From: Nemertoderma westbladi
Taxonomy: Eukaryota; Animalia; Xenacoelomorpha
Direction: 5' to 3'
DNA: 59,407 bases
Assembly (NCBI GenBank): GCA_032718475.1
Contig: JAUCBJ010008643.1
Span: 1 to 59,407 of the forward strand
Below, piece by piece: positions 1-57,642 of this stretch (its first letter is position 1; each line of letters opens with the position of its first letter). The translations under genes and the position numbers were made by a program. The notes beneath the pieces were generated by a model. That model worked only from the letters and a program-made list of their open reading frames with translations. It made no database searches and had not been told where the DNA came from.

Positions 1-1439
1 TCTGTCAAAATGTGTTGCGTCGGTACTACTTTAGCCATAGCTGTCTTTATTGAGCCAATCAGCCTTTCCCAAACGCCGCCTCTCCACGGACTGTCTGGAG
101 TATTAAAATACCAAACAATACGGTGAGGACGTAGTTCCTCGGAAATCTGGTTTTGGTCCAATTTTCTCAAAGCTCTGGTTATTTCGTTCCGTGCACCCAC
201 AAAGTTTGTCCCTTGGTCGCAGTAAATGGATTTGACCAATCCACGTCTAGCGATAAATCGCCGTAAGGCTAGGATAAAGGCATTGGTGGTCAAGTCTGTC
301 ACTCGCTCTATATGGACAGCTCTGCTGGCCATGCAAGTGAAGATCAATCCCCAACGTTTTACCTGTACCCTTCCGCGTTTCGCGATTATGGGTCCAAAAC
401 AGTCTATCCCTGTCTCAGTGAAAGGGGGTCTAAACGCCTGTAATCTAGCTAGTGGTAGTTCACTCATTTCTTGGTGTCCTATCCTCGCGTGCACCTTCTT
501 ACAAATAATACAGTTCCGTGTTACCGAACTCAGTGCCTTACTAGGTCTAATCAGTACAAACCTCGAACGTAAGTGTGATAGACAGTGGTGTCTACCTACG
601 TGTTTGAGTTGTACATGTGCGTCCAGTATCATGGCGCGCTGTAACTCATGGTGTTGCGGTATGATGATAGGATACCTAAAGTCAAGTGCAAAGTCGATGT
701 TTTGGAGTCTGGACTTGTGACAAAGTAAGCCCCGGTAAATAATCGGACTCCAACTCAAAATCGGTGAAGACTTAATCTGTTTACCTTGTTTGATCGCTGT
801 GAACTCTTGTGCGAAATATCGCAATTGATAATGTCGAATGATATCAACTTCACAGTGGCCAATTTCCTTTAAGGTAAGTCTTCTAGGAAAGTCGCGTTTG
901 CCTCTGGCATATTGTCTCAATCGTTTGAGCCATGCTAACTTGCGGCACGCGTCAGTCCAGGATCTAGTTAGGTTCACTATCCTGTCAACGTAAGTGTTAG
1001 TGACGTCATCGGGTAAGGTGTAGTCGTAGTGTGGATACTTGTCTGGACTTGGTAGGCCCACGGGCCTTCCGGTAGGTTTGTCTGAGTCCCCAAGTACGTC
1101 AATCTCTACGGTCTTACCTTTGCCGTCCGCACCTAATGTGTCGACTGGCAGTAATGGTTTCAACTCTACAGTGTCAGTGTGTTCCTGTGAGCCTGTAAGC
1201 TTCCTAACCTTAGTCACACGTTTACCTGTAGGTAAGTCAAGTACCTTCTTCGAGCGGAGTGTAATCCCTGTGGCCACACCTTTGTCGTCCAAAGAAGTCA
1301 AATTCGGTAAGTCTCTAAAAGTCCGCTCCAATGGGTCTTCTAATGGAGTGTCTAGTAGACAGTCTGGTGAAGCGTCTGGTGAACAGTCTGGTGAGACGTC
1401 TGGTGAGACATAGCGCGGAACATCCGGCGAAATGTCCTG
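1..1439 (-). pseudogene. Integrase part of element A pol, in frame after a premature TGA and open to the window edge
   Basis: Manual translation gives HHCC (H..H..CIIC), TGIDCFGP, RRFIARRG, CDQGTNFVGA and WRGGVWERLIGSIK. It is in the same frame as ORF 1440..4841. Confidence 0.92.
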
Positions 1440-1760
1440 TCATTGGTCCCAAAGTCTGTCTAGCGTAACTTCTGTCAGAAAGTCTGGTTCAAAGTCTGGT
1501 GAACAGTCTGTCGAGATGTCTGGTGGAAAGTCTGGTGAGACGTCCGGTAGACATTCTGTCGAGAGTTCTATCAAACAATCTGGCGAACAATCCGGAGAAC
1601 AATCTGGTGTCGCTTCTGGTGAATAATCTGGCGAGTAATCTGGTGAACAATCCGGCGAAACGTCTGGTGAAATCTCCCGCGGAACATCCGGCGAAGGATT
1701 CGTACAAGCGTCTGGTCGAGTGTCTGGCGAGACGTCTGGCGTAATGTCAGGTCTGGCGTC
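1340..1760 (-). repeat. Coding 12-bp (SPDx)n tandem repeat between RNase H and integrase
   Basis: Two blocks of SPDV/SPDC/SPDY tetrapeptide repeats. Confidence 0.85.
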
Positions 1761-4700
1761 CAGGTCATCAGATTTCGTCCGTCCTTTTTTCCTCTTGACC
1801 TTGGCGTTGGCTTTCGCTTTAGACTTGACAACCTTGTCGAGTTTTATCTCGGCACCCTCTGGTATGGTGTTGGTCGTCGCGTCGAATAACGGTGGCCATT
1901 CGTCTGATGGTCGCTGTAGGAAATCGGGTCCTCTAAACCAAAAGGATTTATTGTCCGGTTTACAAAAGTCAAGTGGTTGCATCCCCCGTGACGCGATGTC
2001 AGCTGGGTTCAGCTTCCCTGGACAGTGACGCCAATCTTGTTTGAGCGACCGGTCTAGTATTTCAGCCCGTCTGTTGGCTACGAAAGTCTTGAACTCAAAT
2101 GCTTCGTTGTTTATGTACCAAAGTACCAACGTCGCATCCGTCCAATACGTGACCTTCAAGTTAGCCTCCAGCTCGCGTTGAACTAGACTGACAATATCGG
2201 TGGATATCGTCCCGGCTTGCAGCTCCCCACGAGGTACAGTCATATACTTCAATGGCATTGTTCTAGCCCTTGAAGTAACGAGAGATACATCGTAGCTGTC
2301 CGATGTCACTTGTCGTCTAAGGTATAAAGTAACCCCCAATCCATCCTTGCTAGCGTCACTAAAGCTGTGAAGCTCTAAATCGGCAGGAAAGGTGGTTTGC
2401 AAAGGAAAGTATACCCTTGGTATGGTATAGTCTTGTAGGAACGTCAGTTGGGCTTCCCAGTCCCTCCATCGCTCAGCTAACTTTTCTGGGATGGGATCGT
2501 CCCATTCCAGTCCGGCTTGCCAAATGCTGCGGAGTATGATCCTGGCATGTAGGATCACTGGACTAATGAAACACAATGGGTCATACAATCGACTCATGGT
2601 CGATAAGCAAGTCCTCTTAGTGAGAGGTCTAGTCTGGTCGTTGGACCTTACACGTACCCTAAAATTGTCGGTGTTAGGGTCCCAACTAAGTCCTAATACT
2701 TTGGTCGTCGGCAGAGGTTCTAGGTCTAAGTCCAAGTCACCTCCACTGCGATCCATCGGGTCAAATGAGTTCACCAGTTCGGGTTCGTTGGAAGCGAACT
2801 TCGTCAGGTGAAATCCGCCCTCAGCGAGACAATCCTGGAGTTGGTGTGCTACGGTTGTAGCGCGCTCCAAGGTGTCACAACTCTTGAGGCCGTCATCCAC
2901 GTAGAAGTCTCGTTCCACGGTCCGAACTACTTCTGGGTCAAATTGGTCTCGTCTGTCCAATGCTGTCTGCTTCAATGCGTACATGGTGCAGTTGGGGCTG
3001 TCCCTGGCTCCAAATACTCTTACCTGCATTTGGTAAGTTTCTGGCGGAAGTTGTAAGTTTCCGTCCGGATACCAAAGAAACCTCAAACTGTCCCTGTCCC
3101 GCTCCAAAGCCTTAACCTGGTGAAACATGGCCTCTACGTCACAGGTGAAAGCCACTTTGCGTTGTCTAAAACGCATTAGGACTCCCATGAGGTAATTATT
3201 CATATTCGGCCCGTCCATCAGTTCGCTATTCATAGACATCCCTTGGTAAAGCGCAGCGCAGTCGTTGACTACACGCACCTTGCCAGGTTTGTCCGGGTGT
3301 CGAACAAAATGATGTGGCAGGTAATATGTCTGGTCTGTGGTTACCTCGGGATTTAACATCCTAATGGCGTATCCCTTTTGGAGATACGTCTGAAGTTGTG
3401 CATTGTATTGCATATGGGCCGTCTCGTCTCGCAACAATCGCTGCCTTATTGATTTGAGTCGCCTCAAAGCAAGCGGGTAATTGTTAACGAGTTTAGGTTG
3501 TCCATCGCGCCACAACATACCAACCTCATAGTGGCCATTCGCGGTCTGGCGAATGGTATCTCTCATAATATTTAATGACCGTTTTTCCTGTTCTGACATA
3601 GCGGTCTCGTAACTACCGGGTTCTGCTGAGTCCTGTTCCAACCATTGTATGGTCCGTTCAGTCAGCAGTCGGTCAAGCGCTGCTTGCACTGCGCCATGGT
3701 CCTCGTCCACGTCTTCGTCCGCTGCGGTGGCTAGTGTCAATGTGTCTGGTAGGCTCGCAAGCCTTCCGGTGTCACTAGTCGGCGTCGAATCGTCGTGCGG
3801 CGGTTTGACAACCTTTTGATCTGTCGGTAGGCTCGCAAGCCTTCCAAGATCAACGACCGGTGTCGAAGCCTGGTGGGTGGGGTCAATGACCTTCGGATTT
3901 TTCGGTAGGCTCGCAAGCCTTCCAAAATCCTCGTTCATCGAGTCATCCACGGCAACAACCCTTAGGTCTTCAGTAGTCAATACAACCTGGTCTACTGCAA
4001 GTAGTTGTAAGTCAGAGGTCCGTATGGTCGTGTCCAGATCGGTTACGTCAGTATCGGTGGCGTCTGCGTTAGTGACGCAAGTCTGTCGTAGTGCCGTCCG
4101 TACAATTGGACCACAGGTGTGTGAAGGAGAATTATCTATCGTGTTAGTCAATAAACTACACGTACTCAAAACGTCGTCCTCCTGGTCACTTACCTCTAGT
4201 GAACGTATTGGTGCTCTAGTATACCAACCTATGGGAGTTCTACATGCGTAGGGGTTGCCCGCTGTAATAACAGATGGGCGTGTCTCCCATACCTGATGTA
4301 AGTTAAACTGGTATGTCCCAATTAACATCGCAATGGAACGATAATTAACAGGACATTCCGGTATTCCAAGGTGTCGGAAATACTTACGATCTTCCGGTGA
4401 TTGCTCTGGCACAGGGCCGAGCAAGTTACTAAAGTCCTTCGTAGCTGCAAAGGTCAAATTTCTTACCGGAAGTAATGAGCGCTCCTCCTTGCTGTGTTCC
4501 GCTTTGGAAAGAAGAGTGTCTAAAGTTAGTTTTACTCTTGTCACAGGAATCGCTCTCTTACCATGCATGCTGCTTACAGTATACTGAGCAGTCTTACCTT
4601 GACTCATGTCCGTAACTACGTCGGCTACTTGTTCGTCGACATAACTATGCGATGACGCAGAGTCTAAGATGGCGTATATACGCTTGCTCCCTCGGGTTCC

Positions 4701-4915
4701 GGTAATCTTTATAGGAATCACGCTAAACCCTTTCAATTGGTTCTGTGTGAGGAGCGTTATCGAAGGCTGTTCCTCACCTGCATGCACGTAAAAAGTGTCG
4801 TCTTCCTCCTGGTCCTCATCCGATGATCCTGACTGATCCATACAGTCGGTATAAAAGGTACGGATCTCGCGCGGCGCACGCTCCTTATAAAGCGCGTCGC
4901 ATCTAGCCGCTTTAT
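1440..4915 (-). pseudogene. Element A pol: aspartic protease, reverse transcriptase and RNase H
   Basis: The 1133-aa ORF has Pao-type PR/RT/RH motifs. The frame extends upstream to the solo-LTR insertion site and ends at an internal TGA. Confidence 0.95.
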
Positions 4916-4921
4916 CTGGAT

Positions 4922-5400
4922 TGTCATGAAGGAATCATGCAATTTGTGACATTGTTGACTGAAACCCTCACATTGTCGAAAGAAATATTGTTGTCTCCAA
5001 TAATCACCATATATTACGTATAATATAATAAATAATATAATAAATATCCTAAAATACAAGTATATCTTTCTGCACAAATTACTCACAGTACTCACAACCG
5101 TGAGTCTGTGCCAATATTGAAGACTGAGCTCACAATTCCAGGTTTTCTCAAACTAAAATTTCTACATAACATTAAGCTGAATAGCACTGCTGATATACTG
5201 TATTTATCGCCTGACTTTGTGTTACATCAAATTGTACTGTATCTCATAAATTGTACTGAAGACCGGAATTGTTTGCCTTTAACTAATTATTGAAACAATA
5301 AACATGATAAATAATGATACACATGATAAATTGCACATACATAATAAAAAACGGATATTGCCAATGAAGCTTACTCAAATTCCGATTACAATTTATGACA
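4922..5400. mobile_element. Solo LTR (479 bp) inserted at the gag-pol junction of element A
   Basis: Termini are TGTCAT...ATGACA, with a perfect TSD CTGGAT at 4916-4921 and 5401-5406. Removing it restores the frame ...RREHPDKAARCDALYKERAPREIRTFYTDCMDQ. Confidence 0.92.
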
Positions 5401-8400
5401 CTGGATGCTCTCGTCGAAAGCGTCTGGTCGGAGTATGACTAGTTGTGTGAAGCAACGCGTCATGGTTACGTCCACACAAAGAACATGTATCGTCGCTCGG
5501 GCAATCCTTCCGGACGTGTCCTGGCTTCATACATCTCCAACAGGAATCTAGAGATCGGATTTGGAGTCTCCTCTCCTCGATCCCTAACTCTTTAAAAGCG
5601 CGACATCCACGTAGTTTATGTCCGCTATGGTTTCTGCCATTCCGCTCGCAGTATGAGCATCCCACAAAGTCCGCCGGCAACTGTTGTCGTGGCTGCGTGG
5701 TGCCGATAGGCGTCAGAACTTTAGAAGTCTCAGTAGGGGTGGCGTAAGTAACGGCTTTCGCGTTCGTCGGAAGTGGTTTTGTCCGATTCGGCGCAGAAAC
5801 AGCTATCCCTTCTGCCGCGATATGGTGATCGGTATAGTTCGATCGAGTCTCGATCACGGCCTCCCGTGAAATAAGTTGATAGACATCGGTGAGTTTTAAT
5901 AACCCTCCGGCCTCTTCGCGCTGGTACTCGATGCGTCGCCATTCTCTTCGTAGTCGAAGGTGAAGTCGACCGATTATTCGAATGAGAACCGTCGGTGCGT
6001 TACCGTACTCGAGTTGTCCAATGGACCGTAAAGTCCCTATAGCGTTCTTTATTTCGTCCGCGAGTCGTAAAAGGTCGATCGGTCTCGAAATGTTGCCTCC
6101 TCTGCAGAGGTCTTCAATGATGGATTTAGCCATGGCGACGTTACCGCCGTAAATCGAATACAAACGGTCGTACGCCAATTCAAAGGCATCGGGAACTCCA
6201 ATGAATGTTTCCGCTAATCGTTTCGGCTCACCAGACAGAACTTGGAGCAAGTAATTAAACTTCTCCGTCGAGGTGAAAGCACACTTAGCGATCTGGGACT
6301 CTACGTAGTCTACCAGTGTGTGCCAGTGTTTCGCGTTGCCAGAGAACTTCGGCGGTTGCTGTGCCGGTAATCCGTGTCTAGCCGCGAATTTCGCAATCTT
6401 GCTAACTAAATCCAATTGTCCGCGTCCCTGTTCGGTGGCGTCGTCCAGTCGCTCCCTTCCGCGCGTTGTTCGTCGGTAGGAATTATTAACGGGATCTTCT
6501 TCTCGATGTGTCGGAGTCCGTCTAGTCTCCTGTTCTCTCCTCGGTGGTCGATGTTGTCTAGGTTGTTCCAACTCCACGCTGGTTCGAGATCGATCCGACG
6601 GTTGCGCTTCAAGTCGTTCTTCGAGTTGAGCTATTCTGTCCGTCATCTCGGTGAACTGTTTAGCGCTGATCGTTTCCGCTGGTTTCAACGTGGGTTTTTG
6701 TTGGGGTGTTTCTCGAGGTGGATTGTCGATGTAGGGATTCGTCGACCTCTCCTCTCGTTTGTAATCTTCCGCCGCTCCAGTACGGAATATTTCCCGTTCC
6801 GTCGACTCCGAGTCGCTAGATGAGTCGCTGTTGTCCGGATAAGGTGGCTGGCGGGTTCGTGTCCGGCGTATTATTCTCGGTTTCGTCCGTTGTGGTCCGG
6901 AATCTACGGCTCTCCATTGTTCGGTAGGCTCGCAAGCCTTCCACGAAGTCGTAGGTCTCGCTATACGTTGTCCGATCCCGTGGGTACCACCCACATCCAT
7001 CCTCCTCCGTAGTTTGGTAGGCTCGCAAGCCTTCCACGAAGTCGTAGGTTGCGTCGAACATTGTGTCAACGGTCGAGTGAAATAGTCGGGTTTCGTAGTC
7101 GGTCTGTAAATAACTGGATTTGCACAGCACGTCACAGGTTTAACTTGTAATGGTTTACTCACCTGTTTAATGGTCATAAACGCAGGTTCCTCTCTTCCTA
7201 CAAGTAGACTACGACTTACTGTAGGTGGACTAGTTACGTTACCTGCTAAAATCGGCGATGAAGTCGCCCTAGGTTGCGGTATTTCCGTCACAACAAACCT
7301 GTTGCCTTGCGTCGAATGGACAGGCGTTATTTCCTTACGTTTCGTAACGAAGACCGGTTTTATCGGAGTCGTGGGTTTGAGCATAGGAATAACTTGGGGA
7401 AAACGTTTACAGTAATCCTCGACGAACTCCTCTCCTCGATCTATCGCTCCCACACTTCCTTCCTCGATCCGCTTCTGTATTCCGCGATATCGAGCTTCCA
7501 TGCGATCCAGGGCAGACAAGTCATGTCCAGTTCGCGATCTTATAGATCTATCTCTCGCGTCGAGTTCGAGGTCCGCTTGCGCGTTCGCTGTCTCGCGCGA
7601 TCTACGATTCAATTCGAACTGTAGTTGCATCTCCCTTTCGCGTCGATCCGCTACTTGTTGTTGTGCCGCTAACTCCGCTTCCTGTATAGCTAAATGAGCG
7701 TTTATTTGTCGCGCCTCCAACTTGGCACGAGCGTCGGATGCTGCTTTCTTTCGTGCTAACTCGTCGGCTGCTGCCGCCGCTTCTCGCGCTAAGTCCTCCT
7801 CCAGTCTGCGCATTTCTGAAGCTTCGAATTCGGCTTGCGCCTTGAGTTGCGCAATTCTTGCCTCGTCCTCTCTATGTTGTTTCTCTCCTTCGATGGCGAT
7901 CTGGGCCATCTGGTGTTGCGCTTCTTCCTCGGCGACTAGTGAGAACTTCCGTCGTCCCTCGCGGTTCGACTTCCGGTTCGTCGATCGGTACGCCGCATCT
8001 ACGAAGAAAATTGGTCAGCGTTTCCAACCTTCCGTCCAGGCAGTAGAGTTCTTCTTCCTCTTCGGGTTGTAACAACGCGTCCGAAACTGACTCACCTAGC
8101 AGTTGGTCAAACTGCTCCTGTTGAGCCAATCTTATTACTGACTTAAACTGGATAATGCTTTCTCTCGCACTTACTAATTTATCTACTATCTTTACCTGAG
8201 TAAAGTTGTCGCCACGCAACTCCGCAAGTTCGTGTAAACCTTTAAGTTTATCTACGGAGGCATGTACCCTACTTTCTATCCTTACCTGTAAGGTGTAGAA
8301 CTCGTATCTCGACATCGGGGCGGTTAACTCGCGTAAAACGCGAAAACCTTCTCCGAGGTTCCGAGTAATCTGGCCATGTGTCCTCCTATACTTCTAATAA

Positions 8401-8659
8401 CGTTCTCCTGGCTTCCAGTCGAACTTACCATGTCCGGTTCCCGTGATCTAGTCTGCGGGACGGTAAGGAAATCTTCGATTCTGCCGTCGCCACGCGTTGC
8501 GGCTTCCGGTATTTCCGTTCGGGGTACCGGCGACGCAAGCGGTGTGACATCGGTGGAATCTCGGGTTCTCCTCCTCGGTTCGTCTACTGTCGATCTGTCC
8601 GGGTCGCACGAGTCATAGTCGGTAGGTGGGTATCTCGTCGAATGGGGTGTGTCACTCAT
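5401..8659 (-). pseudogene. Element A gag, broken by two frameshifts (~8330 and ~7900-7990)
   Basis: ORFs 8324..8659, 7872..8315 and 5393..7909 give a coiled coil, a DUF1759-like region, and CSYC..H..C, CWRCMKPGHVRKDC and CSLCGRNHDALLH. Confidence 0.9.
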
Positions 8660-11219
8660 GTCTTATTATATACGTCAAGTACGGGTAATAAAATGTCAAA
8701 GTGTCTGAATGTTGAAGTGTCAAACTTACCTTGGTATATATAGTATATATATACCCTAACCGGTACAAATAAATCAACAAGTCAGAATGTCGAAATGTCA
8801 AAATGTCGAAATGTACAAATGTCAAACTTACCTTGATATATATATATATCATATATATACCCTAACCGGTACAAATAAACTAACAAAGTATATAATAAAA
8901 TAAGTAGTAATCTAGCCTACCGGCTAAATTTGTACGAATAAATGAGATAACGATATACGTTAACAAAATATAGATCAACAAGTACGAATAATAGGCTAAA
9001 CAGCAACGTCTAACGGGAAAATAAGTACCAACAACACTACTAATAGACAGTGAAACCCACAAATTTTGAGTACTACTGTGCTTTCTTAAGTTTGAATGAC
9101 GCGAGTCGTAAAACTTACGTTCCTTTGATCTTCCAGTCGTACAAATTCCCAAATACAAACCGGACGTGGGTCTTTCCGTTTTTCGGCGGCGCGGACGAAT
9201 TTATTGTCTCCCAAACTTTGCGAAAAGCGGTCTAATCCTCGAAGCGGTCCAGAAATGAGTCCTTGAGTCCTGAAAAGGTCGAAGGTGAGAGTTTTACTTC
9301 TACGCTTACGAAAAATCTTCCTAGGTACCGATACAAATTGGTCTTTAAACCCTATGTACCTTTTCAAGTACCGAAAGTAACACCGCACACACACGGCGTA
9401 AAACAAAGTGCTACAAACTAACTGTTAGCTAGTCAAATATTAAATACGAAAGTACTAGCTACCCTAAGAGCCTACTGAAGCAGGGGACGTTCTAAATTAC
9501 TAAATTTACTAACCTTAAATTTTAAATATCTCCTACTTTCAATAGCTAGCAGATCTAAACTATACTATACACTAATTTCAGAATTTGTATAATATACTTC
9601 CTACTGTAAGGGTCCAGTAGTATACCGCTTACCAGATCCTAGTAACGATGTATCTTACTATGAGACTCTAGTAATGTATACGGGCTCGTACAGTATCTGA
9701 CAACAAATCCCAGTCCAGGATATCTAAACAAACAGATACAATACACAAACGACTACTGGCGAGGAACAGAGCCTAGTATCTATTCTATGTACGTGAGCGG
9801 GTCTAATGCCTACGTACTAGACAAAAGGATACCTGTCCTCTAACCGGTGAGGCAGATGTACAGTTACAGTAACAGACCAAACTCACGGGAAAACAATCCC
9901 CGCGCAGCGAATCCTAACTATCACTGACAGTCCTAAATACAGTAACTTGCCGCGGTGTGATTTATATGGTTTATATACGAACTAGGTGGTTAACAGACCT
10001 AGTGTAACAATGCTGATTACCCCTGTCTAAATCAGCCTAGAAGGTCGTGCCTAAATGTAACGATAACTGATCCCCCTGTACGAAATCAGTCTAAAGGGTC
10101 AGGCCTAAATGTAACAATAACTGCTGGACAGAAATCAACAGTTTATAACGAAAGTGAAATACTCCTTATTGCCGCAACTAAATCAGATCCTAATTTTACA
10201 AATACAGATAATTTCTACCTAAAGTAATGTATAGTGCGCTATAGCTAGTAGAACTTTAAGGGCAATATGTTTTAGGGCGTGTGTGTGTGGGTGTGTTACA
10301 AATAAAACAATTTCGTGTAATTCCTTTACTAGGTTTTAGTGATTTTCTGACTAAATGATACCGTGCGCTAGCTACTAAAATAAACTAGTCGCGTTTGTAG
10401 AACTTTATACTCACAAAATGACGTCAAAGCTCTCTCCTTCCTATCCACAACCCAATGGGCAACCACAGTGTTAGTAACTACACCCGTGATTGGCACTAAT
10501 ACCAGATTCTGGTTGTAAGATAAGGAATAGGGGTTAATTGCTACCGTACGTTAGCTGATCTGGTATACTAATTTAATTCTAGAACTTTGTTGCTGCGGTA
10601 GTTAGCAGCAATACCTATCAGTACGTGGCAAGGCGCGGTAGGATATTAATAAACCTCCCTAGGCCAAGCAGTGTGCCAGTAGCAGAAATACTCCTTGCCT
10701 GATCAAATAGCTAACTCCAGACAGGGGGGGGGGGGGTACTAATGTACGTTCTACAAAGCGAACCGGTACCAAACAGTCAGTGCTACGACTCACTAAATTA
10801 TGGAACATATGCTGTCCGTACCTAATATGTACTCGCGTACTGACGAATGGCAATAGTTCGCACCTGTAGGAAGTACAGGTTAACCCAGGGGTTCGTAGGA
10901 CTGACAAAGGGGGGGGGGGGGTGTTTCTGTCTGAATATAATTATTTGATCCTAAATTTGCGGCGTCCAGTACGGCGTCACGCTTACCCTGATCTATAGGT
11001 CTTACGGCGGGCAAGGACGTCGAACAAAGTCTTACCTTCTCACAAAGCGGGCGCTGCATAGCAAGTGGAGTATTTCGAAGGGCAAAGGGGTGCGCGGTCG
11101 ATCCAATGTGGGCGCTAGTGTGTTGTGGACATCTCTTCCCTGCGTTGCTTACCGCCTAACGGTCTAGGCTGCCATCTCCCTGATGTTTGGCTGTCCCAAA
11201 GTTGGACCAAAAGAAAACA

Positions 11220-11650
11220 TGTTCAGGAATTTGCAGTATATTTACAGTTTTACAAAGGATTTATCAAATAAAGTTTCAACAAGAAACCGAAATAAACTAG
11301 AGTGACAGAAAGGTGAAATGATCTAAGAAGAAGGGTAAAATGATCTAAGAAGAAGGTAACGTAAGAGGTGATAACCGAAGGCAAACCGGCCTTTTATACT
11401 AAATATCGCACATGGAAACTAAACAGAATTTTCCACAGCTTCACATTTGAGCAATAAAGTGCTTCGTGCCCTATGATTGGCCCAGCTCATTGTTCAACGC
11501 AGTCCGGCCCTTACACTAATCTGGGACATGGAATCCTAACAGAATTTTCCACTGCCTCACATTTGAGCAATAAGATAATTTATGCCCTATGATTGGCCTG
11601 GCTCATCATTCGCTACGTTGTACGCTTCTCATTGGCCTACCAATTAGCAC
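11220..11650 (-). repeat. Probable 5' LTR of element A
   Basis: On the minus strand it ends ...CCTGAACA, followed by TGTTTTCTTTTGGTCC (BEL-type PBS-like). It has TATAAAA near 11395 and duplicated CCAAT-containing ~117-bp blocks at 11420-11610. The partner LTR is not in the window. Confidence 0.6.
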
Positions 11651-11679
11651 CAAACGAAAATAAATGGCCCCAAAATACA

Positions 11680-11756
11680 AATTTCCCGACCGGGATTCGA
11701 ACTCGTAACCTATGTAATGTAACCAATGCCTTAACCATCTGACCACTACGCCACGA
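11680..11756 (-). mobile_element. tRNA-derived SINE head or tRNA pseudogene
   Basis: Minus strand reads GTGGCGTAGTGGTCAGATGGTTAAGGC...GAGTTCGAATCCCGG (A and B boxes). The cloverleaf is poor. Confidence 0.55.
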
Positions 11757-11895
11757 GAGTACCTAAGGGTTTTATGTGTACAAATATGAATAGGCATATT
11801 ACATTACTGTAACTCAATCAAAATACGTCGGATTTTCGAAAGTTTTTATGTTAAAGTTAAACTACAAATGCTATCTTATAGTGAAATAATTCATC

Positions 11896-12365
11896 AGTCT
11901 ACGCAGTACTCGTCTTCATTATATGCCTCGTTGCGCTCGTCATTCGTCCCGTGTTGTCATAAAATATTTTTCCTAAACGCAGACTGACGAACTTTATACA
12001 GTTATAACTATGCGAAGTTTTGAAACTGTGCGAGTAACTGCTGATACATCTATGTGGAGATGTGTGATACAACGCCAACGCATCGTATGCCGATGTAGTA
12101 ATATGGGTATTGAAATAATATTAAATCAATGTACACTCTTAAAGCTGCAGCGAAAAATTGTAGCTAATTTCCTTGGTTACATATAAAATAATAAAATTAT
12201 TTTTAAGAACATTAATTTTACTACTTTACAAAAATTCAATTAAAAAATAACCAGACAAATACATTGTGGAATAAACTATTTCATATATAAGCCTACACAA
12301 CAGCCATGCCACGGATAGTATTTATGTTATTATACATGTATCTGTCATTTACCTGAGATAGCAAT
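11896..12365. repeat. Left arm (part 1) of a large inverted-repeat/foldback element
   Basis: Reverse complement of ~29145..29579. Confidence 0.85.
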
Positions 12366-12418
12366 TGTAAAGGCTTTTGCGGAATTAGCTGGTTATTTTC
12401 CCCGCAAAGGAATTTTCC

Positions 12419-13133
12419 CCATCGCTATTACCCTGGACGCGCCTACGAGTGAGTTTACGCGTTCCATCCTTATCTATTCGCGTCTGTTGAACAAAAAACA
12501 CGCACACTGAGTTACGAACTAATGAAGCGTGTTGGTGAGTGTATTTCCACCAAATTTGTTCGAAAATATCTCAGGAACGTCAATCCTAACGATATTAATT
12601 CATACCATTTGATCAATTTCATCCGTCAAGACCCTGAGTATGGCGATTTATTTATCAACTCGCACCCTGAGTTACAGGAAGTATCTCGACGGCCCTACGA
12701 ATATCGAGCCCGAGAACGCGAGCTGGAAAGAACCATTAAACCGAGGAAGTTTCTCACCACTCACGGTCCACCTACCGCTATTGTCCAGACGACTCGTCAG
12801 GGACCAGTAGGAGCTGCTGTCCTAAGACGCGCCCTAAAGGCCGTTAGACCTCGCTCCACTGAAGTTGATATCGATCAACCAGGTACCTCGACCGGCGGAT
12901 ACACCGATCGTAATCCTAAACCTTCTGATGCAATTGTATTGCACCCTTCACCCAGGAGTTATAGCCCTCCTAGTAAAGTGGCTCCCCCCAAAGAGAAAAG
13001 GACTCTTGCTAGCCTCAAAAAACTGCGTAAACGCCGTCCGCGTAAGAAAGACTAACTGTTTAGAGTATTTTTATATTTTAGAAACTGTGATTTTTTATAT
13101 TTTATAGAATTAAATCCTATTTTCTGGGAGCGG
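12419..13133 (+). pseudogene. Duplicated 3' tail of the extra ORF plus PPT, placed upstream of the 5' LTR
   Basis: Near-identical to 26443..27157 (offset 14024). It contains ORF 12522..13055 and is preceded by the first ~44 bp of the LTR (12366..12409). Confidence 0.93.
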
Positions 13134-14309
13134 TCTAAAGGCTTTTGTGGAATTAGCTGGTTATTTTCCCCGCAAAGTACTCTGTAGTTGTTTAAACGGA
13201 GATAAAAAGCCGTTTCCTTACTGTACCGGTGTTTTAGTGGACATAAAAAGCCATTTCTTCTGTATGTGTACTTTAGCGGACATAACTAGCGATTTTATGT
13301 CGCAATAAGCCAAATACTCTAAATATCGGAACTCAGATGACGACATCTATCAGCTGTGTCCACGTGTAACTTTTTCTTTGTTCTTTGTTCGTTCTTTGTT
13401 CGGTCGACCAATCAGAGCGGTTTTCACTCTGTGTTGGAGATTGTATACAGAAACTCACGCAATTCAGTCAGGGTGTGTATTTTTTCCTGATGCCAGAACA
13501 CCGGCTTTGGAATTTCTGTGTTTCAGGCTTTAGCAAAACATTAGTAGGCTTGATCATAGAAACGTATAACTGTTATCTAATCATATCTCAAACCAAAACA
13601 TATTGTTACAAATCATATTGTCACCTACAAACACCGCATTTTTACTGCTATTTACTGTTGGTTATTAATTATATCAGTTGATGGAATATTATTATATTTG
13701 GATAACATCGATAAATAATCATAAAACCCCAATCTTGATATACTGAAGGTAAGAGACAGGTTACATATAGCAATTGCGACTTACATTATATTGGTTTTGG
13801 AGTGAATCTAATGCTATTTCATAGGCACTACATGTGTCGGTTGCTGTTCTCTTTATATGTGACTAAAATTAGTGAAGGTCGGCAGATCGGTGTGCAGCAT
13901 TGTGCGGTAGTGTGCATGAGTTTGATAGATAACAAAGCATCTCCTAAAGAATGCGCTTTATACGTGAATCAATAGCCATCCTGTTGTGCTTAGTGTAAGT
14001 CATAACTCTGTTTACATACTTAGAGCGCCACGTCCTAAAGGAACTGTTGATATTTCCCGAAAGTGAATAATATTTGTCAGAGATTATATATTAACGATCA
14101 ATCGAATAATACAGTAGGCCTACATCGCAATAAGGTCAGAGCTTCCGAATCCAGTCTCCCGGGTATATCCAGCGGGTGAATGGTCGCGCATAGACTGGCT
14201 TCGGCTAATGTAGTGTATCAAATACTCGTCATAGGCTAAAGTCGATTTATAATCTAGAAGACACCTAAATTTGGCAGGTTAAACTGCTAAAGGTCTGAAA
14301 GCGCGAACA
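13134..14309 (+). repeat. 5' LTR of element B (1176 bp; first dinucleotide TC instead of TG)
   Basis: Direct repeat of 27158..28333 with about 8 substitutions counted by eye. Confidence 0.95.
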
Positions 14310-14656
14310 ATAACAGTTATAACTTCTGATTGCAGTGTAGGCAATAAATACAGTTTAATATTGTTCTGGTAAGAAGAATAACAGTTATTGCTTCTGTATT
14401 GCAACGTAGGCAATAAAGCTGAAGTACCGGTCAACCGGTAACTAGTAGGCCTAACTACCTAACCACCCGAACCGGTACTTACTGCAGTACAGGTACCAGT
14501 ATTATTTCGATTGTGATATATTATATATTATAGGCTGTTAGGGGATTAGGGATTGATCACCCCTTATTCCTTTGTATGGTTTACTTATTTCTGTCAGTTT
14601 TATTTATTTGCAGGTTAATATTGAGCAGAAGACGTGTAAGCCTGCTCAGATTGTAC

Positions 14657-15235
14657 AGATAATTTGTAGGCTGGACTGTTGTCTGACTGTTGTTAAGTCT
14701 GAAGAGATTGTAGTGTGTGTAGAGTGTATGTCCGATAAAGTACTAGTTAGGAACTTAGGGGCTTCCAGTGCTGTGAGGTAAATCCCCCCGAAAGAATAAG
14801 TCGTACTACTCGGATAGAACGCATACTAACTAACCATTTCGGAGTCTGCATATACTGTAGTTTGTTTAGGCTTGATAGTAGTCTGCCAGCGTTTGGTCTG
14901 TATTTTGTTTGTGTAGTCTGTACGGGTAGTGTAATATTTCTTATTTAGATAATTTGTAGGCTGGACTGTTGTCTGACTGTTGTTAAGTCTGAAGAGATTG
15001 TAGTGTGTGTAGAGTGTATGTCCGATAAAGTACTAGTTAGGAACTTAGGGGCTTCCAGTGCTGTGAGGTAAATCCCCCCGAAAGAATAAGTCGTACTACT
15101 CGGTTAGAACGCATACTAACTAACCATTTCGGAGTCTGCATATACTGTAGTTTGTTTAGGCTTGATAGTAGTCTGCCAGCGTTTGGTCTGTATTTTGTTT
15201 GTGTAGTCTGTACGCGTAGCGTAATATTTATTATT
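14657..15235 (+). repeat. ~290-bp tandem duplication in the element B leader
   Basis: The block AGATAATTTGTAGGCTGGACTG...GTAATATTT occurs twice, near-identical. Confidence 0.9.
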
Positions 15236-16570
15236 CAGAGTTTATGCGATTATTCGCAACATTCACAACCCCGAGTTTATTCCTACAGTAATTGTGCTTG
15301 TTATACATACCGTTATAGTTAAATTAACCCCGGTACTACATCAGGGCTGCTTGGCTTAGGTAAAGACTGGTGATTTTGTGCCCCGGTCACTCCAGCAGAT
15401 ACCGTGGTTCTTTTAGCTGTACAAGTATTTCTAACTGCTGGTTATTTGTTGTATAAGTACTTGTACCTAATTTAGGGTTTAGTGTACAGTGCTTTCCGAA
15501 GGTAATTAGTGTGTAGGTAGTATATTTGTGTTGTAAAGTGGTTAATAGGCACGTTGGCTCTGGTAGGCCGTGGTAATTAACTTCTAGGTAGGAACACTCC
15601 GTGATACATAACGTAGTACTTATAGCGATACGGCTATAAGTCGTCAGACGGTGGTATTTTTCCTATCTGGACAACGCAGTATATTTACTACTGCTTTGTT
15701 ATTTTCAAATACCGTAGTATCCTGTCTGTTTGTAATAACCAGATATTCTAACCCTTTGTTAGGCTGGTTCGTAGACTTCTTGTAAAATTACCCTAAAAAT
15801 TTCGTACGTGTAATTTTGTATTTATTTAGAGATTGTAATCTCACCCCGAATTGTACGTAATTTGTAGTATTAAGTAACTTAGGTAAATTAGAATTATTTG
15901 TTTTAGTGTCCAACAAGTAGCACTTCACTGAGAGCACACAGCTTCTGTGTAGTGACTCCTTCCCAGAAATAATAACATTTATTTCAAATATTGACAAAAC
16001 CCATTATACGGGTATATATATATTATAAATCAACTTAAACCGATTTATAAAATAGTAGGCCTGTCTTACAACAATTAGGTCTTAATGTCAGTTGGACTAC
16101 TGCTTAAATAACGGCAATCAAGTAAAGTAAAGTAAACAAGTAACCCCTAAAATTCAGAAATTCAATTATTCTAAAATAATTGACATACCGGTATTTACGA
16201 TAGGCTTATTATATTTATTTCTATAAATTTAGGCTGAAATTATACCGGTATTCTGTAATTAATTCTAGTCCATAATTATACTTATATATACTATAAGTGT
16301 AAGCTGTATACCGGTATTCACGATAGGCCTATTATATATTTATATATATCTGTGCTGAAATTATATACCGGTATTCTGTGACAAACCTAGTCTGTAATAA
16401 TACTTATATATATACTATAAGTGTCTACCGGTATTCTAATATATTGTATATATATCACGTTACATAGAGTAACGATATCGGTAATTAATTACTAGGCTAA
16501 CGGTGATACTGAATTACTAGACTTGCTTTAACTGTAATAAAGCAGTAGGCATTTAACTGTACAAACAAAC

Positions 16571-19500
16571 ATGTCTGACACAAAGCCAAACCTGTCAGAC
16601 AGTCTCCTAGATACAACCATCTGTGACCCAGACAGGAGTGTGGAACGTGTGCGACCGAAGTTCAATTCACCTCCTACCGTAAGAAAGATCATCCCTCCAG
16701 TAGTAGTATCAGACCCTAGGCTAGTCCAACACCGTAGGTCTATCATAGGCACTCGAGCTCAGGTCAAGCGGGACCAAGAAGCAGCAGAACAGCAGCAACA
16801 CTCGAGCCGAGAACTTATTTCTCAACGGCCCGACAGCTCCAGTAGTGCGGATACTGTAGAGCTGACACCCGAGCGCGGAGCAAAGATGGCAGATGCGGTT
16901 TATTCGGATCCCCTTCTCATCCTTCCTGCAGCCGTACTCACTAGGGTATTGATTGCGGTGGAGGAACACCAGATTGATTGGGCGAGAAGTAAGCGATCGA
17001 CCAAGGATAGTTATGCGGGATACACAAGGGAAGAACTGAAGTCTATTGTCGAGTCGCAATGGAACTTCCCCGGACCCGGACTCCCATTTGACTTATCGGA
17101 AGCTGCCTGGGAAGACATACACAGGATGGGAGTGACAAAAGAAACCAGCGATCCAGCTGTGTGGAAGAGGTCAGCAGCAGGATACGTACAGGGATTCTTC
17201 AGCTCTATGGAGCGATTAGAGGAACAACTGTTTCGACAACCCCAAGGACCTCAAGAGCAGGGAGAGCTGCTTTATCAAGTTAGAGAAGGAATTCTAAGAA
17301 TCAGACTAATCTTATCGGCCTTTGAGGAGGCTTCAAAAAGAAGACAAGACACGTCGTTGCAAGTTGCCGTAAAGACTTGGTTTCAGCGGGTGAGTCTCAA
17401 AGTTCAAGGAACTGCCCCGTGGAAATCTCAGTTGGCGGAGCGCTCAACCCATGGAGAATCAACAGACGCTACCTTTTCCCAAGTGGAAAGTGAAGTGACA
17501 GCAGAAAAACCGCATAAGAGGGATGCTATTGACATCTATCTGTCAGACTATCAACGATTTGTAGGTGACGAAGAGTTGAGGAGACGGCTGTCTGGACTTC
17601 GCCCTAATAGTGAAGGAGCCAAGCTTGTGTTGGACGCAATCGATGCGGATATGTTAGCTGCGAACCAAGCTAAATTTGATGAACGCCTCCGCATCGCTAG
17701 AGTCCAAGAAGAACAAGTAAAGAAAAAATGTATAGAAGACAGAAAGATAGCAGCAGCGGCAGCAGCAGAGGCAGAAGCGGAAAGATAAGCGGCAGAGGCA
17801 GTGGCAGAAGCGGAAAGAAAGCGAGCCGTGGCAGAAGCAGAACGAAGAGCATCTGAAGAGACCACCCAACTAGAGTTGGAAAATATTCAAGAGAATCAAG
17901 ACCGCATAAATAAACAGTTAGCAGCTAGTCAAATGCAGATGATGAGTCGATCTACTCCCAAAAGACAGGGATATACATCATCTGATGAAGGCGATACCAC
18001 CGATCCTGAAGGCGGAGGAAATAGATCTCGTCTAAGCAGATGTAGAAGAATGTCCCACCTTCAGAAATTGCCTAATTTACCCCCAGCTGTTAGAAGGCAA
18101 CTAACTAACACAGACTTAGGTAGTACAGAACCCACAGACCAAATAATTAAAATAGAAAGACTCCCTACTATAGTAGATGAGCCTGAAATAATTAGGCCTG
18201 TTCTCGAAGCCACCCCTTCGGTGATAGAGACACCTGTACTCCCAGAACCTACCTCTAAATTCCCTTTGCACAGTACTAAACTACCTGTGCCCAGTAGGAC
18301 TGTTCATGAGTCCGAACCCGTCCTGGACGCCGAGCGAGATATCAAGAATTTATCGCCCGTCGTCTCTCGCTCGCCCGCTACTACGTTGGCGACTCCCGCT
18401 TCGGCGGTCGAGTGGGTAGCTGAGGGACGACGGGAGATGGGTCTCCTGCTCGGGCAGCTGAGGGAACACCGTCAGTGCTCCTCTCAGCAGGTCCGGGAGA
18501 TGGAAGGAACTGTTCAGCAGTTCAAGGGCACAGTAAGGGAAAGTAGGTTAGAGTTGCAAGAAGTGCAGCAGAGTATCGCGTTAGAACGCGATAAATTGGT
18601 AAATATACAAAAGGGTATACCACCACCCCCTGTAACAATGTGTCAACCTGTTAGGTCTGAAGTATTTCATGCGCAAGGTGTGGAGCCTACACGCATCTAT
18701 ACTGCTAGTGAAGTAGAAACTCCTATAGTAAACCCTATTAAGGGTAATTATAAACCTGTTGACAATGATATTCCATATAGACTTGATAATAATCCGAGAA
18801 ATTTATATACCGATAAATCGATATTAAATAACACGATGGCCCAAGAAAGTTTTACGCATCAAATGGCTAGAACCGAAGCCCGTCAAGCGGTAAAGGTGGG
18901 AGAGATCATCAAGTTCAATGGGGATGAGATGAAATGGTTACCTTTTAATGAATATTACAAAGATAACATACAGAACTCTGTGCTATCTAACGGAGAGAAA
19001 CTTAGATTCCTCATCGAGTGTTTGGAAGGATCTCCCAAGTTAATGGCGTTAAAGTTTATTGGACATCCAGATGGATTAAGACAAGTTTGGGATACACTAA
19101 ACATCAGGTATGGTAATAGGACTAACATAGCTAGGTATTTATATGCGAAATTAATGGCGCCCCGAAAGTTTCTTAGCAGCGGGATTATAGAGTTTTCCGA
19201 CGAGATTCAGGAGATCTGTAGACAACTAGATTGGTTAGGTAAGTCTCATGAATACCAGAATTTTATGGTTGTAGGAGCCTTAACATCTACTTTGCCCAAG
19301 GGTGGAGTAGGTACACACTGGGACAAGAAAGTGTTATATATGATGGAACAACAATGACGAGACCCTACCATGGCTGATCTCATGTCATTCTTAGATGGAG
19401 AGGTAAAATTACAGCTCCTAAAGCAGTCCAGAGAGAAGACACCGGAAAATAAGGTAAGTGAGAAACCCGTTTCTAGGAGAAAGTTAATACCAGTGTGTTA

Positions 19501-21487
19501 TACAGACGACGGCGAAAGCCAGACTTCTCAAGAGGAAGACAGCGGGAAAGACACTGAAAGATCTTACTATGACAACAAAGCGCCTAAGGACGTAAGTAAA
19601 TTCAAGTCTCGAACCAATGACAGGAGAGAACAGGTAAGAAAAACTCATCCTACGTCTCCTAAGAGAATTCATGTAAGAAAGCCCGAGGAAAGAACGAGTG
19701 TGCACAACGTTACCCAAAGTAAGGTAAGTAACATCAAACCAAAATGTGTGCTGTGCGACGGGCCCCACCGTTTAAGTGCGTTTGATGAATTCCTAAAGAA
19801 ATCATTAAAGGATAGATGGGAAGTCATGTGGGATAAGCGGTTGTGTTATAATTGCCTCAGACAAGGACACCAACGGCGAACCTGTTACTCCGAAGCAAGG
19901 TGTGCGAAGTGCAGCGCAAAACATCATATCTTGTTGCACACTGAATTCGAACGAAACAGCCCGAGTCAGGTAAGTGAGTCCGAACTACATGTCCAATTCA
20001 GTGATGTGAACGACACTGACCAAAGTTCTGAGATGGAAGGATTCTATATGGACGAATTCTCCGACGAAAACGAATCCTGTTACCTGATAAATACCGCAGT
20101 GTATCGAGCACTTACGTATGAAAAGGACACCGACAGCGAGCTCCCCCTAACTACTTCTGACCGACAACCATCTTGGAAATCACCAACTTCCAATGTAGGA
20201 ATCCGAGAATTTCCCGTAGTGCAGTTGAGGGTCCACGGACCTGATAGGAGTTATATAGTGAACGCCCTCCTTGACTCCGGTAGCACAGGAACATTATTCA
20301 TCGACAAAGAACTAGCCGAAGACATCTTTGCTGGACGACCCAAGTTCCGAACTAAGTTAAACATGTCAGGAATTATGCAGGTTTGGAAATCTACAGTAAT
20401 AGCAGATTATTATGTAGGTGCGTTGTCCACCCCCCAGGATGAACTAGGAGAACACAGTATAAGGTCAGTAAAAATGGTGGCGATAAAGAACTTCGCTACC
20501 AGCCAAGTAGAACCTTATAACTGGGATGAGGACGATTTCACCCAGCAGCTTAAGATACCTAGATTCAACACAGACTACCCTGGAGTGCAAATACTCATCG
20601 GCCAAAATGCGCATGAGGCGCTTGAGACATTGGAGAAACGGCCTGCTCAACCGCAACCACTACAAGCCTATGCGGGAAGAACTAGAGTGGGTTGGTACTT
20701 TACTGGCCCTTCCCGTAGAACTCTCATGGAAAGGTTACCAAAAGAACGGGTATACCAAGTAAGTGAATGGGAAGCGGAGAGCAGTGAGGTAGACGACCCA
20801 ACTGAGGGAACACCATACTCCTCAGATAATGACGATATTAACTCCAATGTAGATCAATGGAGATATTGCCCCGAGACGATTAATCTAGCCGACATCGCTT
20901 CCAGAGGAGCAACTCCTCAAGAACTGACAGATACTCCAGACTGGTTAGGTGGACCCGACTTCCTAAGTAAAGAAGAAGAATGGCCTCCCCATCTTACCAC
21001 GGCTGAGATTAGACAAGCCAAGGGAGCGGAGAAAGTCAAACCTAAAACCCGGACGAGTAAATCAAGGTTATTTAAACCCGTGATAGATCTGTCTGTACTA
21101 CACATTGCCAGGGACGACGCTGTGGATCTAAACTCCCCCACCGCAAACCGATCTGTTGTGGAGATCAGAGAGAGAGACTGGAGATCTGGAACACCAGACG
21201 TCTCGCCGGGACTCTCACCTCTCCTGCCGGGAGCGATGGACCACTATAGATCCTGGAATCGGCTTTGTAAGGCCGTCGTGCATTTGAAGCGATGTTTCTA
21301 TCGTCACTATTCCAGGACGAAGAGGAAACCTGGAATTGTATTCGAAACACAACAACTCAATCGCCCAGTTGGTCGTTTATGTTTACTGGAAAGAGGCCGA
21401 GAACTGTCCGGAAACTATGGAAGGCAAGATACTCTTCCCACGACCACCTCCCTAATCCAACAAACATCTAGGGACTCCCCAATGTAA
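16571..21487 (+). pseudogene. Element B gag-protease with internally deleted pol; two in-frame stops (17786, 19355)
   Basis: Three ORFs lie in one frame. They contain KFNGDEMKW, CYNCLRQGHQRRTC, CAKCSAKHHILLH and ALLDSGSTGTLFI, then only QWRYCPETINLADIASRG (RNase H tail) and RPVGRLCLLE (pol C-terminus). No RT or IN core is present. Confidence 0.92.
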
Positions 21488-23040
21488 CAGCGTCTGGAGT
21501 GGGTGTGTGACTATATTATTTTATATTTGTTTTTATTATTTTATATTTATGTATGTATTATTATGTAATTTTATTATAATCGTTTTCTTTAATTTTATTT
21601 AGTAGAATGTTATTTTAGCGATTATCTAGTAGATTAGTGCAATATATATTCGCGTTTATTACTTAATTACTTATATATTATATATTTAGTGCGACGGCGA
21701 GAAATAATTCTTTTTCTCTTTCCTTACTGTCCGTATTACATTATAAATACGTGACTACAATAAGATGAAATATCCGTACTTATTAAAGTACAATAAAGCT
21801 CCTACTATATTTAAGTATTATTGGTAAGTAGAGTATTAGGAATGCAAAGTTCAAATCCTCGTGTCTCGGCTAAACCAAGCTCTGGGTAGACCTTGGAAAC
21901 GACTTGCCTCTACTCACTGACATTGCTTCTTGCGCTATTGCTCTCATACCGTATATTAAATAATACATATAGTAGCGTGATGTCCCTTTAATATTAGCGT
22001 AAAACGCAAAATAAATCTGTTAAACCTTTTGACCATCTGTAATTCTAGTCGATTAAGATATCGCGGCACCCACCGATATACTTGAAAGACAAAATTCTAG
22101 AATCAGTGGTTAACGTCCCCAGACAAGTTCTGGAATAAACTGGTGCCCATCCTAAATATTAACTATTAATATTTATAAAATCTGTCAAATTTTAGATCCT
22201 TTAAAATTCTAGTCTATTAAGATATCGTAGCACTTACCGATATTCTTAAAAAGACCAATTTCCTAGAATCAAGGATCCTAGTCCCCAGACATGTTCTGGA
22301 ATAAAATTGTGTCTATTTAATATTAAATAATAAAATTTACGGGAATAAATTTAAATTCATATTTTAATGAATTTGATAAATTGTCATTTTTATACAATTT
22401 ATAACATTCCCAAAATTCCATTAATTAATAGATCATGGGAGCAGAGATTCACCCTATTAAGTGTATTAGTGTGCGAGAATCTCCAATATATAGTCAATAG
22501 CCGATAAAATTCATAAAATCATGTATAAAGGGGATATTGACAATTAAAGAATTACTATTAAATAGCATCCCAGATCTGTATGCATGAGAATTACCCTAAT
22601 TCTACCGCTAGCTTTCCATAATGTCACCATAGCAACAACCACGCTAGAATTAGAAGTGAGTTAAAAGAACAATAGAAAGCTTACCCCATTGAATAGCATA
22701 GGGAATAAATAGCACACTGCTAGTATCCAAGGATACATAATAATAACGTGGCATTCTGGAAGGCACTGACTAACGGACAAATGGCCCGAATGTGTACAAT
22801 TTGTGACAGTTGTGTGGAATTTGTGCGTTTATAGGTGAATGTTACTACTAAAGTGTGTTTACAGTAGCGAGTCGCAATTGTGAAAGTAGCCCTAACTCTG
22901 CAGCAAGAACCTGAAGTAAATCTAAGCCTTTGGGACGGACAGTGGAGTGACTTGTGCCGGTTATCGTTGTCGTTGTGTAGCTACTACGTTGGCGAAATAG
23001 AAAATTCACCGCTCGCTATACGCATCGTAATGGTACGTAT

Positions 23041-26000: not shown

Positions 26001-27079
26001 AAGACGAACCAATATGCTTAGAATCTGAGGAGATTCAGCCTACAGCGCCCCGGAGCAGCGATAACGACTACGTCTTGGAATGGTATCAAGGTCCACAATG
26101 TCTCACCGCATACGATTATCGGCACGCCAACTATGTTTCTCGAAAACGTTGCCGATTATGCGCATCGAGAGATCATTTCACCCCTATGGACTCAGACGTA
26201 CCCTGCTCCTATTTCCATGAACAACCGATGATGGAGATCTATTGTGCGTATTGCAGACTCAATAACTCGCACATTTTTGCAGTCTGCCCACAATTTATGA
26301 CTCAATGCCACCACTGTCAACTTAAAGGACATGCCAGTTTTAATTGCCCTTTTAACCGCGATCGGGAAAGCATAGATGAGATGATTACCCTGCGTTACAT
26401 CCGAGCTTGGGAAGCGAACGCGGATTTGCATTGTGAGTCACGCCATCGCTATTACCCTGGACGCGCCTACGAGGGAGTTTACGCGTTCCATCCTTATCTA
26501 TTCGCGTCTGTTGAACAAAAAACACGCACACTGAGTTACGAACTAATGAAGCATGTTGGTGAGTGTATTTCCACCAAATTTGTTCGAAAATATCTCAGGA
26601 ACGTCAATCCTAACGATATTAATTCATACCATTTGATCAATTTCATCCGTCAAGACCCTGAGTATGGCGATTTATTTATCAACTCGCACCCTGAGTTACA
26701 GGAAGTATCTCGACGGCCCTACGAATATCGAGCCCGAGAACGCGAGCTGGAAAGAACCATTAAACCGAGGAAGTTTCTCACCACTCACGGTCCACCTACC
26801 GCTATTGTCCAGACGACTCGTCAGGGACCAGTAGGAGCTGCTGTCCTAAGACGCGCCGTAAAGGCCGTTAGACCTCGCTCCACTGAAGTTGATATCGATC
26901 AACCAGGTACCTCGACCGGCGGATACACCGATCGTAATCCTAAACCTTCTGATGCAATTGTATTGCACCCTTCACCCAGGAGTTATAGCCCTCCTAGTAA
27001 AGTGGCTCGCCCCAAAGAGAAAAGGACTCTTGCTAGCCTCAAAAAACTGCGTAAACGCCGTCCGCGTAAGAAAGACTAA
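23041..27079 (+). pseudogene. Extra 3' ORF of element B, ~1345 codons, unknown zinc-knuckle protein (2 TGA stops, 1 frameshift)
   Basis: ORFs 23041..23574, 23656..25035 and 25081.. share a frame with open gaps between them. A +1 shift, probably at the A5 run near 25255, leads into 25085..27079. It contains CRLCASRDH, CAYCRLNNSHIFAVC and CHHCQLKGHASFNC, and ends KKLRKRRPRKKD. Confidence 0.85.
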
Positions 27080-27157
27080 CTGTTTAGAGTATTTTTATAT
27101 TTTAGAAACTGTGATTTTTTATATTTTATAGAATTAAATCCTATTTTCTGGGAGCGG

Positions 27158-29054: not shown

Positions 29055-29579
29055 ACAGGCAGCCAGTAGTATTGCTATAGCAACACAGACATAACTCCAA
29101 CCATACACTGCCTGTATTTCAATTCGTATTGACTCTATATTACTTACTATCTCAGGTTACAGAAGATATAATGACTGTTGTAGGCTTATATCTGAAATAG
29201 TTTATTCCGCAATATATTCGTCCGGTTATTTTTTAATTGAATTTTGGCAAAGTAGTAAAATTAATGTTCTTAAAAATAATATTATTATTTCATATGTAAC
29301 CTAGAAAATTATCTACATTTTTTCGCTGCAGCTTTAAGAGTGTACATTGATTTAATATTATTTCAATACCCATATTACTACATCGGCATAAGATGCGTTG
29401 GCGTTGTATCACACATCTCCACATAGATGATCAGCAGTTACTCGCACAGTTTCGAAACTTCGCATAGTTATAACTGTATAAAGATCGTCAGTCTGCGTTT
29501 AGGAAAAATATTTTATGACAACACAGGACGAGCGACGAGCGCAACGAGGCATATAATAAAGACGAGTACTGCGTAGACT
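29055..29579. repeat. Right arm of the inverted-repeat element
   Basis: Reverse complement of 11896..12365 plus 28334..28443. Confidence 0.85.
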
Positions 29580-57520: not shown

Positions 57521-57642
57521 TACATTTTACTATTAACACGTTGTGTGCCCATTACTCTGGTTCTACATCATGGAATTTTATAAAAAATTTCCAGAAGGGC
57601 GGAGTAGTATCGAGATACACCTGGAACCTAATAAAATTTAAT

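Follow-up and report, generated by a model that had tools for sequence, protein, structure and literature searches.

The stretch of DNA analyzed here, referred to as the window, comprises 59,407 nucleotides (nt) of contig JAUCBJ010008643.1 (assembly GCA_032718475.1) from Nemertoderma westbladi. On its minus strand it carries a BEL/Pao long terminal repeat (LTR) retrotransposon, whose gag and pol frames contain six copies of a 20-nt hairpin (Table 1). Profile searches assigned DUF1759 (E 4.8e-9) and zf-CCHC (E 2.9e-4) to Gag, in which three Cys/His clusters can be recognized by eye, as well as Peptidase_A17 (E 5.7e-40), Integrase_H2C2 (E 2.7e-5), and, weakly, RVT_1 (E 0.013) to the pol frames. 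The domain order protease - reverse transcriptase (RT) - RNase H/Peptidase_A17 - integrase was found, the protease being identified by motif only, and PF05380 is present in 119 of the 120 protein matches listed. The 3′ end of the element lies beyond the window. This copy is degenerate: pol is interrupted by the in-frame stop at 1440, the 5′ part of gag (apparent start 8659) by further stops and frame changes, and an AT-rich segment (4935-5392) separates gag from pol. The nearest public proteins share 43-44% identity in RT/RNase H and 22-34% in gag; a relative closer than ~44% protein identity was not found. Likewise, a search for the hairpin-bearing linker among shorter proteins gave no match, and none of 89 candidates for a related locus in viral contigs was confirmed. 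Within the RNase H-integrase linker, an array of ~30 degenerate units of 12 nt was observed (1327-1763, minus strand) that encodes P-D-x-S-like repeats, and a short stretch resembling this array is also present in a second BEL element of the window.

Five hairpin copies are identical over 20 nt, spaced by 78 and 78 nt in pol and by 93 nt in gag. Allowing up to 3 mismatches, 0.02 copies are expected by chance, and none of 100 shuffles reached five. At 1051, the sixth copy carries four changes in its 20 positions, all of them transitions; the chance expectation for a 16/20 match is ~0.006 within the element and 0.04 for the entire window. The core is predicted to fold as ((.(((((....))))).)) with -7.6 kcal/mol on both strands and the 1051 copy with -9.6 (sense) and -10.5 kcal/mol (antisense), an A-A mismatch being retained in all six copies. 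Translation yields GRLASL in pol, KACEPT in gag (offset 1), and GRPVGL at 1051. In an alignment of 317 BEL proteins, the numbers of proteins aligning at the six sites are 0, 0, 4, 5, 8, and 5, compared with ~150-260 in the folded domains; all six copies are located in lineage-specific linkers. The six sense-strand peptides encodable by the two motif versions have no exact occurrence in these 317 proteins. The original prediction of five identical copies, three of them with a 78-nt period, located in inter-domain linkers of a BEL/Pao element, folding into a stem with a tetraloop and being read in different frames in gag and pol, was borne out in all of these parts. Adjacent to the variant, its last six bases are repeated directly before the copy on the sense strand (1065-1076), which yields a near-palindrome of 12 nt extending into its 5′ arm.

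Table 1. Coding frames of the BEL/Pao element and hairpin copies therein; structures are predicted on the sense (minus) strand
Feature	Position	Strand	Characteristics
gag frame	5393..8014	-	DUF1759, CCHC knuckles
pol frame	1440..4934	-	protease motif (DSA), three-hairpin linker, RT (YVDD), Peptidase_A17; in-frame stop at 1440
pol continuation	3..1439	-	variant-hairpin linker, then integrase (H2C2 zinc finger, D-D-E by eye); exits window
gag copy 1, exact core	7016..7035	-	5-nt 3′ bulge and 6-bp lower helix with one G-U; predicted stem-loop 7005-7041
gag copy 2, exact core	6923..6942	-	lower helix as in 7016 copy, one G-C changed to G-U; predicted stem-loop 6912-6948
pol copy 1, exact core	3904..3923	-	U-G pair, 2-nt 3′ bulge, 6 Watson-Crick pairs below; predicted stem-loop 3895-3930
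pol copy 2, exact core	3826..3845	-	U-G pair, 2-nt 3′ bulge, 7 Watson-Crick pairs, two swapped relative to 3904; predicted stem-loop 3816-3853
pol copy 3, exact core	3748..3767	-	6-bp Watson-Crick helix further out, 3773-3778 with 3731-3736
variant	1051..1070	-	RNase H-integrase linker; closing C-G, loop CGUG; sense strand without lower helix
candidate further hairpin site	7936..7942	-	absent from window copy; inferred from contig joints

Each of the three pol copies begins a 78-nt unit, and the two complete spacers are homologous and identical at 33/58 positions, in comparison to 20/20 in the cores (Fisher P 1.6e-4). Within the spacers, 8 of 19 third positions are identical and four synonymous differences are found among nine conserved residues. 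None of the six core codons was changed, chance reuse of the same six codons having a P of 7.6e-5 per copy. The block shared between gag and pol amounts to 20-24 nt and is read in different frames. In gag, 33 nt are common to both copies (13 extra nt upstream), which makes them non-independent, and this pair provides weaker evidence against duplication than the pol copies. The equally conserved flanks that the original prediction had named as the mark of recent duplication were not found in the pol units, and plain recent duplication fits poorly as a source of the copies. Conservation on nucleotide level, also proposed there, extends over entire cores including synonymous sites and across two frames, and a constraint on the nucleic acid is in our view very probable. 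Furthermore, all seven base pairs were retained at 1051 after four changes (P 0.011-0.029).

Below the invariant core, the copies differ. A lower helix with a 3′ bulge is predicted for four of the six copies, and five possess a copy-specific lower helix if 3748 is counted. The longest contiguous helix below the core was determined in 20 settings, and a helix excess was obtained in all eight Watson-Crick settings allowing bulges (P 0.0001-0.023), while the 10 settings with G-U pairs ranged from P 0.0002 to 0.40 versus the element null. The signal originates mainly from 3904 and 3826, whose cognate flanks form 7 bp compared with at most 3 bp if swapped. Between these two copies, three differences in the 5′ arm face three in the 3′ arm, comprising two compensatory swaps (U-A/C-G and G-C/U-A) and one broken end pair; changes at partner positions were significant in simulation (P 0.007-0.014). 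Both swaps alter amino acids, so the peptide changed without loss of pairing. The lower helix of the gag copies relies on G-U pairs, with a pair probability of 0.73-0.85 on the sense and 0.00-0.01 on the antisense strand (140-nt context).

The loops UGCG and, in the variant, CGUG are both self-complementary via G-U on the sense strand, whereas neither antisense loop is; 36 of the 256 possible loops share this property. Being self-complementary on the RNA strand, two copies could therefore form a duplex. The predicted sense homodimer has 18 of 20 nt paired with -30.7 kcal/mol, compared with -15.2 for two hairpins and -22.9 for the antisense homodimer. In a 260-nt context, the sense hairpin probability drops to 0.00-0.01 in four copies and neighboring copies pair with each other, a cross-copy pairing in the cluster folds that results from the self-complementarity of UGCG through G-U.

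Further copies were sought inside and outside the window. A covariance model built from the six copies detected no seventh copy in the window (best other match E 0.64). Apart from the six copies, the model gave no match below E 1 within 7040-20723, and a location in the 5′ leader or at the gag start was not found. An Rfam scan of 1-10000 (E up to 10) gave one match, at 9194, which is unrelated. A site at 38509 matching the 1051 copy at 16/20 positions was rejected, as it is built on TAGGCCTA, present 7 times in the window. Among metagenome contigs a single exact match (L001) was obtained; it holds one copy inside a bacterial-type open reading frame, is otherwise dissimilar, and was treated as chance, as were four degenerate matches (L002-L005) representing one identical phage-type sequence. 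Viral contigs contained no exact motif match, and the exact motif was not found in any paper of the mostly open-access literature. Judged by eye, neither mimicry of a tRNA anticodon arm nor a Helitron 3′ hairpin fits.

In order to extend the analysis toward other family members, four public runs were compared with 700-8000 (X1, X3, and X5 being run labels, and X4 possibly being RNA). From two DNA runs of one organism, 10,024 and 4,584 contigs were placed with identities from 99% to under 90%, pointing to a large family with diverged subfamilies. The details given here refer to the 40 of 634 variants, 15 of 107 joints, 12 of 41 between-letter entries, and 24 of 864 loose ends listed. The number of gag hairpin copies varies between members. 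In three different joints, the sequence at 7942 stands six bases away from a hairpin end, i.e., 7035-7937 (X1, X3), 7035-7942 (X5), and 3766-7942 (X3), and behind 7937 ten X1 contigs continue unlike the window. Judged from these junctions, other members probably carry a further hairpin near 7936-7942; alternatively, the joints may represent deletions ending at the hairpin. One diverged contig aligns to 3851, six bases beyond the hairpin, and then jumps to 4145. The AT-rich segment at 4935-5392 shows a contig depth of ~300 versus tens of thousands in its flanks, where summed depth does not equal copy number. Joints in the DNA runs skip this segment, which is a minority feature and perhaps an inserted small element.

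The window harbors further repeats. A second BEL/Pao element (12419-28333, plus strand) is bordered by 1.89-kb LTRs (12419-14309 and 26443-28333) with 99.4% identity. Its gag start resembles that of the first element, RT is missing, and two long frames without Pfam match (22981-25035 with one stop, and 25085-27079) are situated between the pol remnant and the 3′ LTR. An inverted pair of 412-nt repeats (11896-12307 and 29171-29579, 94% identical) is located outside these LTRs. In addition, tandem arrays occupy 32241-34560 (34-nt), 41633-45240 (65/67-nt, with higher-order units), and 55291-57524 (~69-nt), and an 837-aa frame at 52463-54976 (plus strand) gave the coiled-coil-type Pfam matches Hamartin and TMF_TATA_bd.

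Taken as a whole, an RNA signal under selection is likely. The original prediction had considered an RNA signal or a DNA binding site; the former is favored over a duplex DNA site because the lower stems are compensated and the G-U pairs of gag stems and loops form on the sense strand only, while the core itself folds equally well on both strands. We tentatively propose, at somewhat below an even chance, that the genomic RNA carries the hairpins as repeated tags for dimerization and packaging, and that Gag of the element itself handles them. Each copy would consist of a fixed apical stem-loop with the invariant A-A mismatch and, below it, a lower stem that varies and has a 3′ bulge, and two copies are predicted to convert from hairpins into the 18-of-20-nt duplex. 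The zinc knuckles of Gag may recognize the fixed tip and chaperone this conversion between two co-packaged RNAs, which would provide several family-specific contact points along the long genome. Such tags would persist in linkers only, because the protein there presumably tolerates any residues.

Signals of comparable kind have been described. In Ty1, the SL1 hairpin converts with Gag into the extended PAL1-PAL2 duplex at the 5′ end (PMC6844567), and the leader of murine leukemia virus (MuLV) combines the palindromic stem-loops SL-A/SL-B with the GACG tetraloops of SL-C/SL-D, while a site of feline immunodeficiency virus seemingly lies within gag (PMC5874298). Similar to Ty1 and MuLV, short hairpins of an LTR element with central G-C tetraloops are predicted here to be convertible into an intermolecular duplex. 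Dispersed packaging signals are known in single-stranded RNA viruses, i.e., MS2 and the hepatitis B virus (HBV) pregenome (PMC6281560); several stem-loops with a common motif are spread along the genome there as well, but that motif is loose, whereas 20 nt are invariant here, in an LTR retrotransposon. A review on Ty1/Ty3 mentions a possible contribution of scattered, undefined sites that lie outside the main packaging region (PMC4974528). The I factor localization signal (ILS), a stem-loop in coding sequence of which Egl-BicD reads two helices and 3′ bulges (PMC13186709), shares its location in a retrotransposon coding sequence, the two helices, and the 3′ bulged bases with our motif. It differs by belonging to a non-LTR element and being read by shape with variable loops, the upper helix being shorter, G+C rich, invariant, and present six times here. 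A description of a BEL/Pao packaging, dimerization, or localization signal was not found in the mostly open-access literature searched.

Bacterial REP (repetitive extragenic palindromic) and Rickettsia palindromic elements are short, repeated imperfect palindromes distributed genome-wide in bacteria, some within coding sequence. The motif resembles them by GTAG at one end of the plus strand, but within the window it occurs in a single animal retrotransposon only. The motif would act like the retroelement and viral signals described above, yet it fits no family's full definition.

Several points weigh against the proposed tags. Signals of Ty1 and retroviruses cluster at the 5′ end or leader, in contrast to six copies distributed over 6 kb of coding linkers; the Ty1 in-gag palindrome PAL3 is dispensable (PMC6844567) and the interiors of Ty1/Ty3 are mostly deletable in donor-helper assays (PMC4974528). 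The sister BEL element of the window, with a gag identity of 26-28%, lacks the motif, although it is internally deleted. Moreover, one gag unit is missing from some members of the family (6970-7085, net 93 nt, in X1; 6971-7107, net 87 nt, in X5). The tests on lower helices and loops were post hoc, devised after the folds had been seen. In 60-nt folds, the five exact copies reached z-scores of -2 to -3.8, hinting at longer stems; these no longer count as evidence, because a folding-energy flank test with fixed core did not reach significance (Fisher P 0.43 and 0.64; five copies, 7016 omitted as duplicate). The two zero-bulge Watson-Crick settings of the helix test gave P 1.0, and with G-U allowed the antisense flank signal is equally strong, 3748 and 1051 even extending better on that strand. 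Column shuffling of just two rows, 3904 and 3826, was not significant (125/500), which also applies to all six rows (69/500); the covariation stems from copies within this single element. The compensatory change claimed at 1051 consequently stands with regard to the seven retained pairs, but not as a significant lone U-A to C-G swap. The loop ranks in the top 6-7%, and two random changes keep its self-complementarity 17-50% of the time; as post hoc evidence, this property is of modest weight.

The same data may be read differently. Host proteins could use the hairpins as landing sites on RNA for nuclear export or germline transport, as in the I factor signal. All sense-strand RNA structure evidence applies to this explanation too, and the copies at 3904, 3826, 6923, and 7016 resemble the upper and lower Egl-BicD helices with 3′ bulged bases (PMC13186709). 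Still, we regard it as unlikely, since Egl-BicD signals depend on two helices that are 6 bp or longer while the upper helix here measures 5 bp above the A-A mismatch, tolerate different loops while this tip is invariant, and the sister BEL element is devoid of the motif. On DNA level, the motif could be bound as a dyad by a dimeric host factor, thereby forming an internal enhancer or silencer, or it could fold into a hairpin in the single-stranded complementary DNA during reverse transcription. It is a near-perfect dyad, both strands being equally stable as RNA (-7.6) and similarly as DNA (-4.4 and -4.7), with antisense pair probabilities of 0.92-0.96 in four copies in the 260-nt context, where the sense hairpins yield to cross-copy pairing; among the joints listed, some lie at most 6 nt from a hairpin edge (7035 twice, 3766, 3851). 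A duplex site, however, requires neither compensated copy-specific flanks nor coupled arm changes at 1051, and pairing in the gag lower stems and in both loops depends on G-U pairs that exist on the sense strand only, rendering this explanation quite unlikely.

A neutral origin would involve RT template switching that copies or homogenizes the hairpin, which the linkers would tolerate, with compensated changes produced by quasi-palindrome correction. The arrangement in tandem (78-nt and 93-nt units), the 33 nt common to the gag pair, the varying copy number among members, joints at hairpin edges among those listed, and the 12-nt repeat array in the same element are in line with such a process. 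It nevertheless appears distinctly improbable: identity ends at the hairpin edges, both between gag and pol and in units with 57% identical spacers, palindrome correction should erase the A-A mismatch that was kept in six of six copies, and 20 nt are not a whole number of codons. Protein-level conservation of a repeated linker peptide or cleavage site, suggested by four copies reading G-R-x-x-x-L-P in one frame, is hardly credible, being largely refuted by the two copies in another frame; in addition, the cores are free of synonymous change and the exact peptide is missing from the 317 related proteins.

Returning to the dimerization and packaging tags, a broader and more speculative extension, possible but doubtful, would be that BEL/Pao genomes are zipped and packaged via an array of G-U-palindromic stem-loops in linkers instead of one leader signal, with the tip providing family identity and the copy-specific lower stems bringing the two RNAs into register; other, unrelated LTR retrotransposons may show the same arrangement. 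With its exact coordinates, natural variant, and compensated stems, the 20-nt motif opens the question of scattered sites to tests with short RNAs. Moreover, room for RNA signals may be a possible reason for linker expansion in retrotransposon polyproteins.

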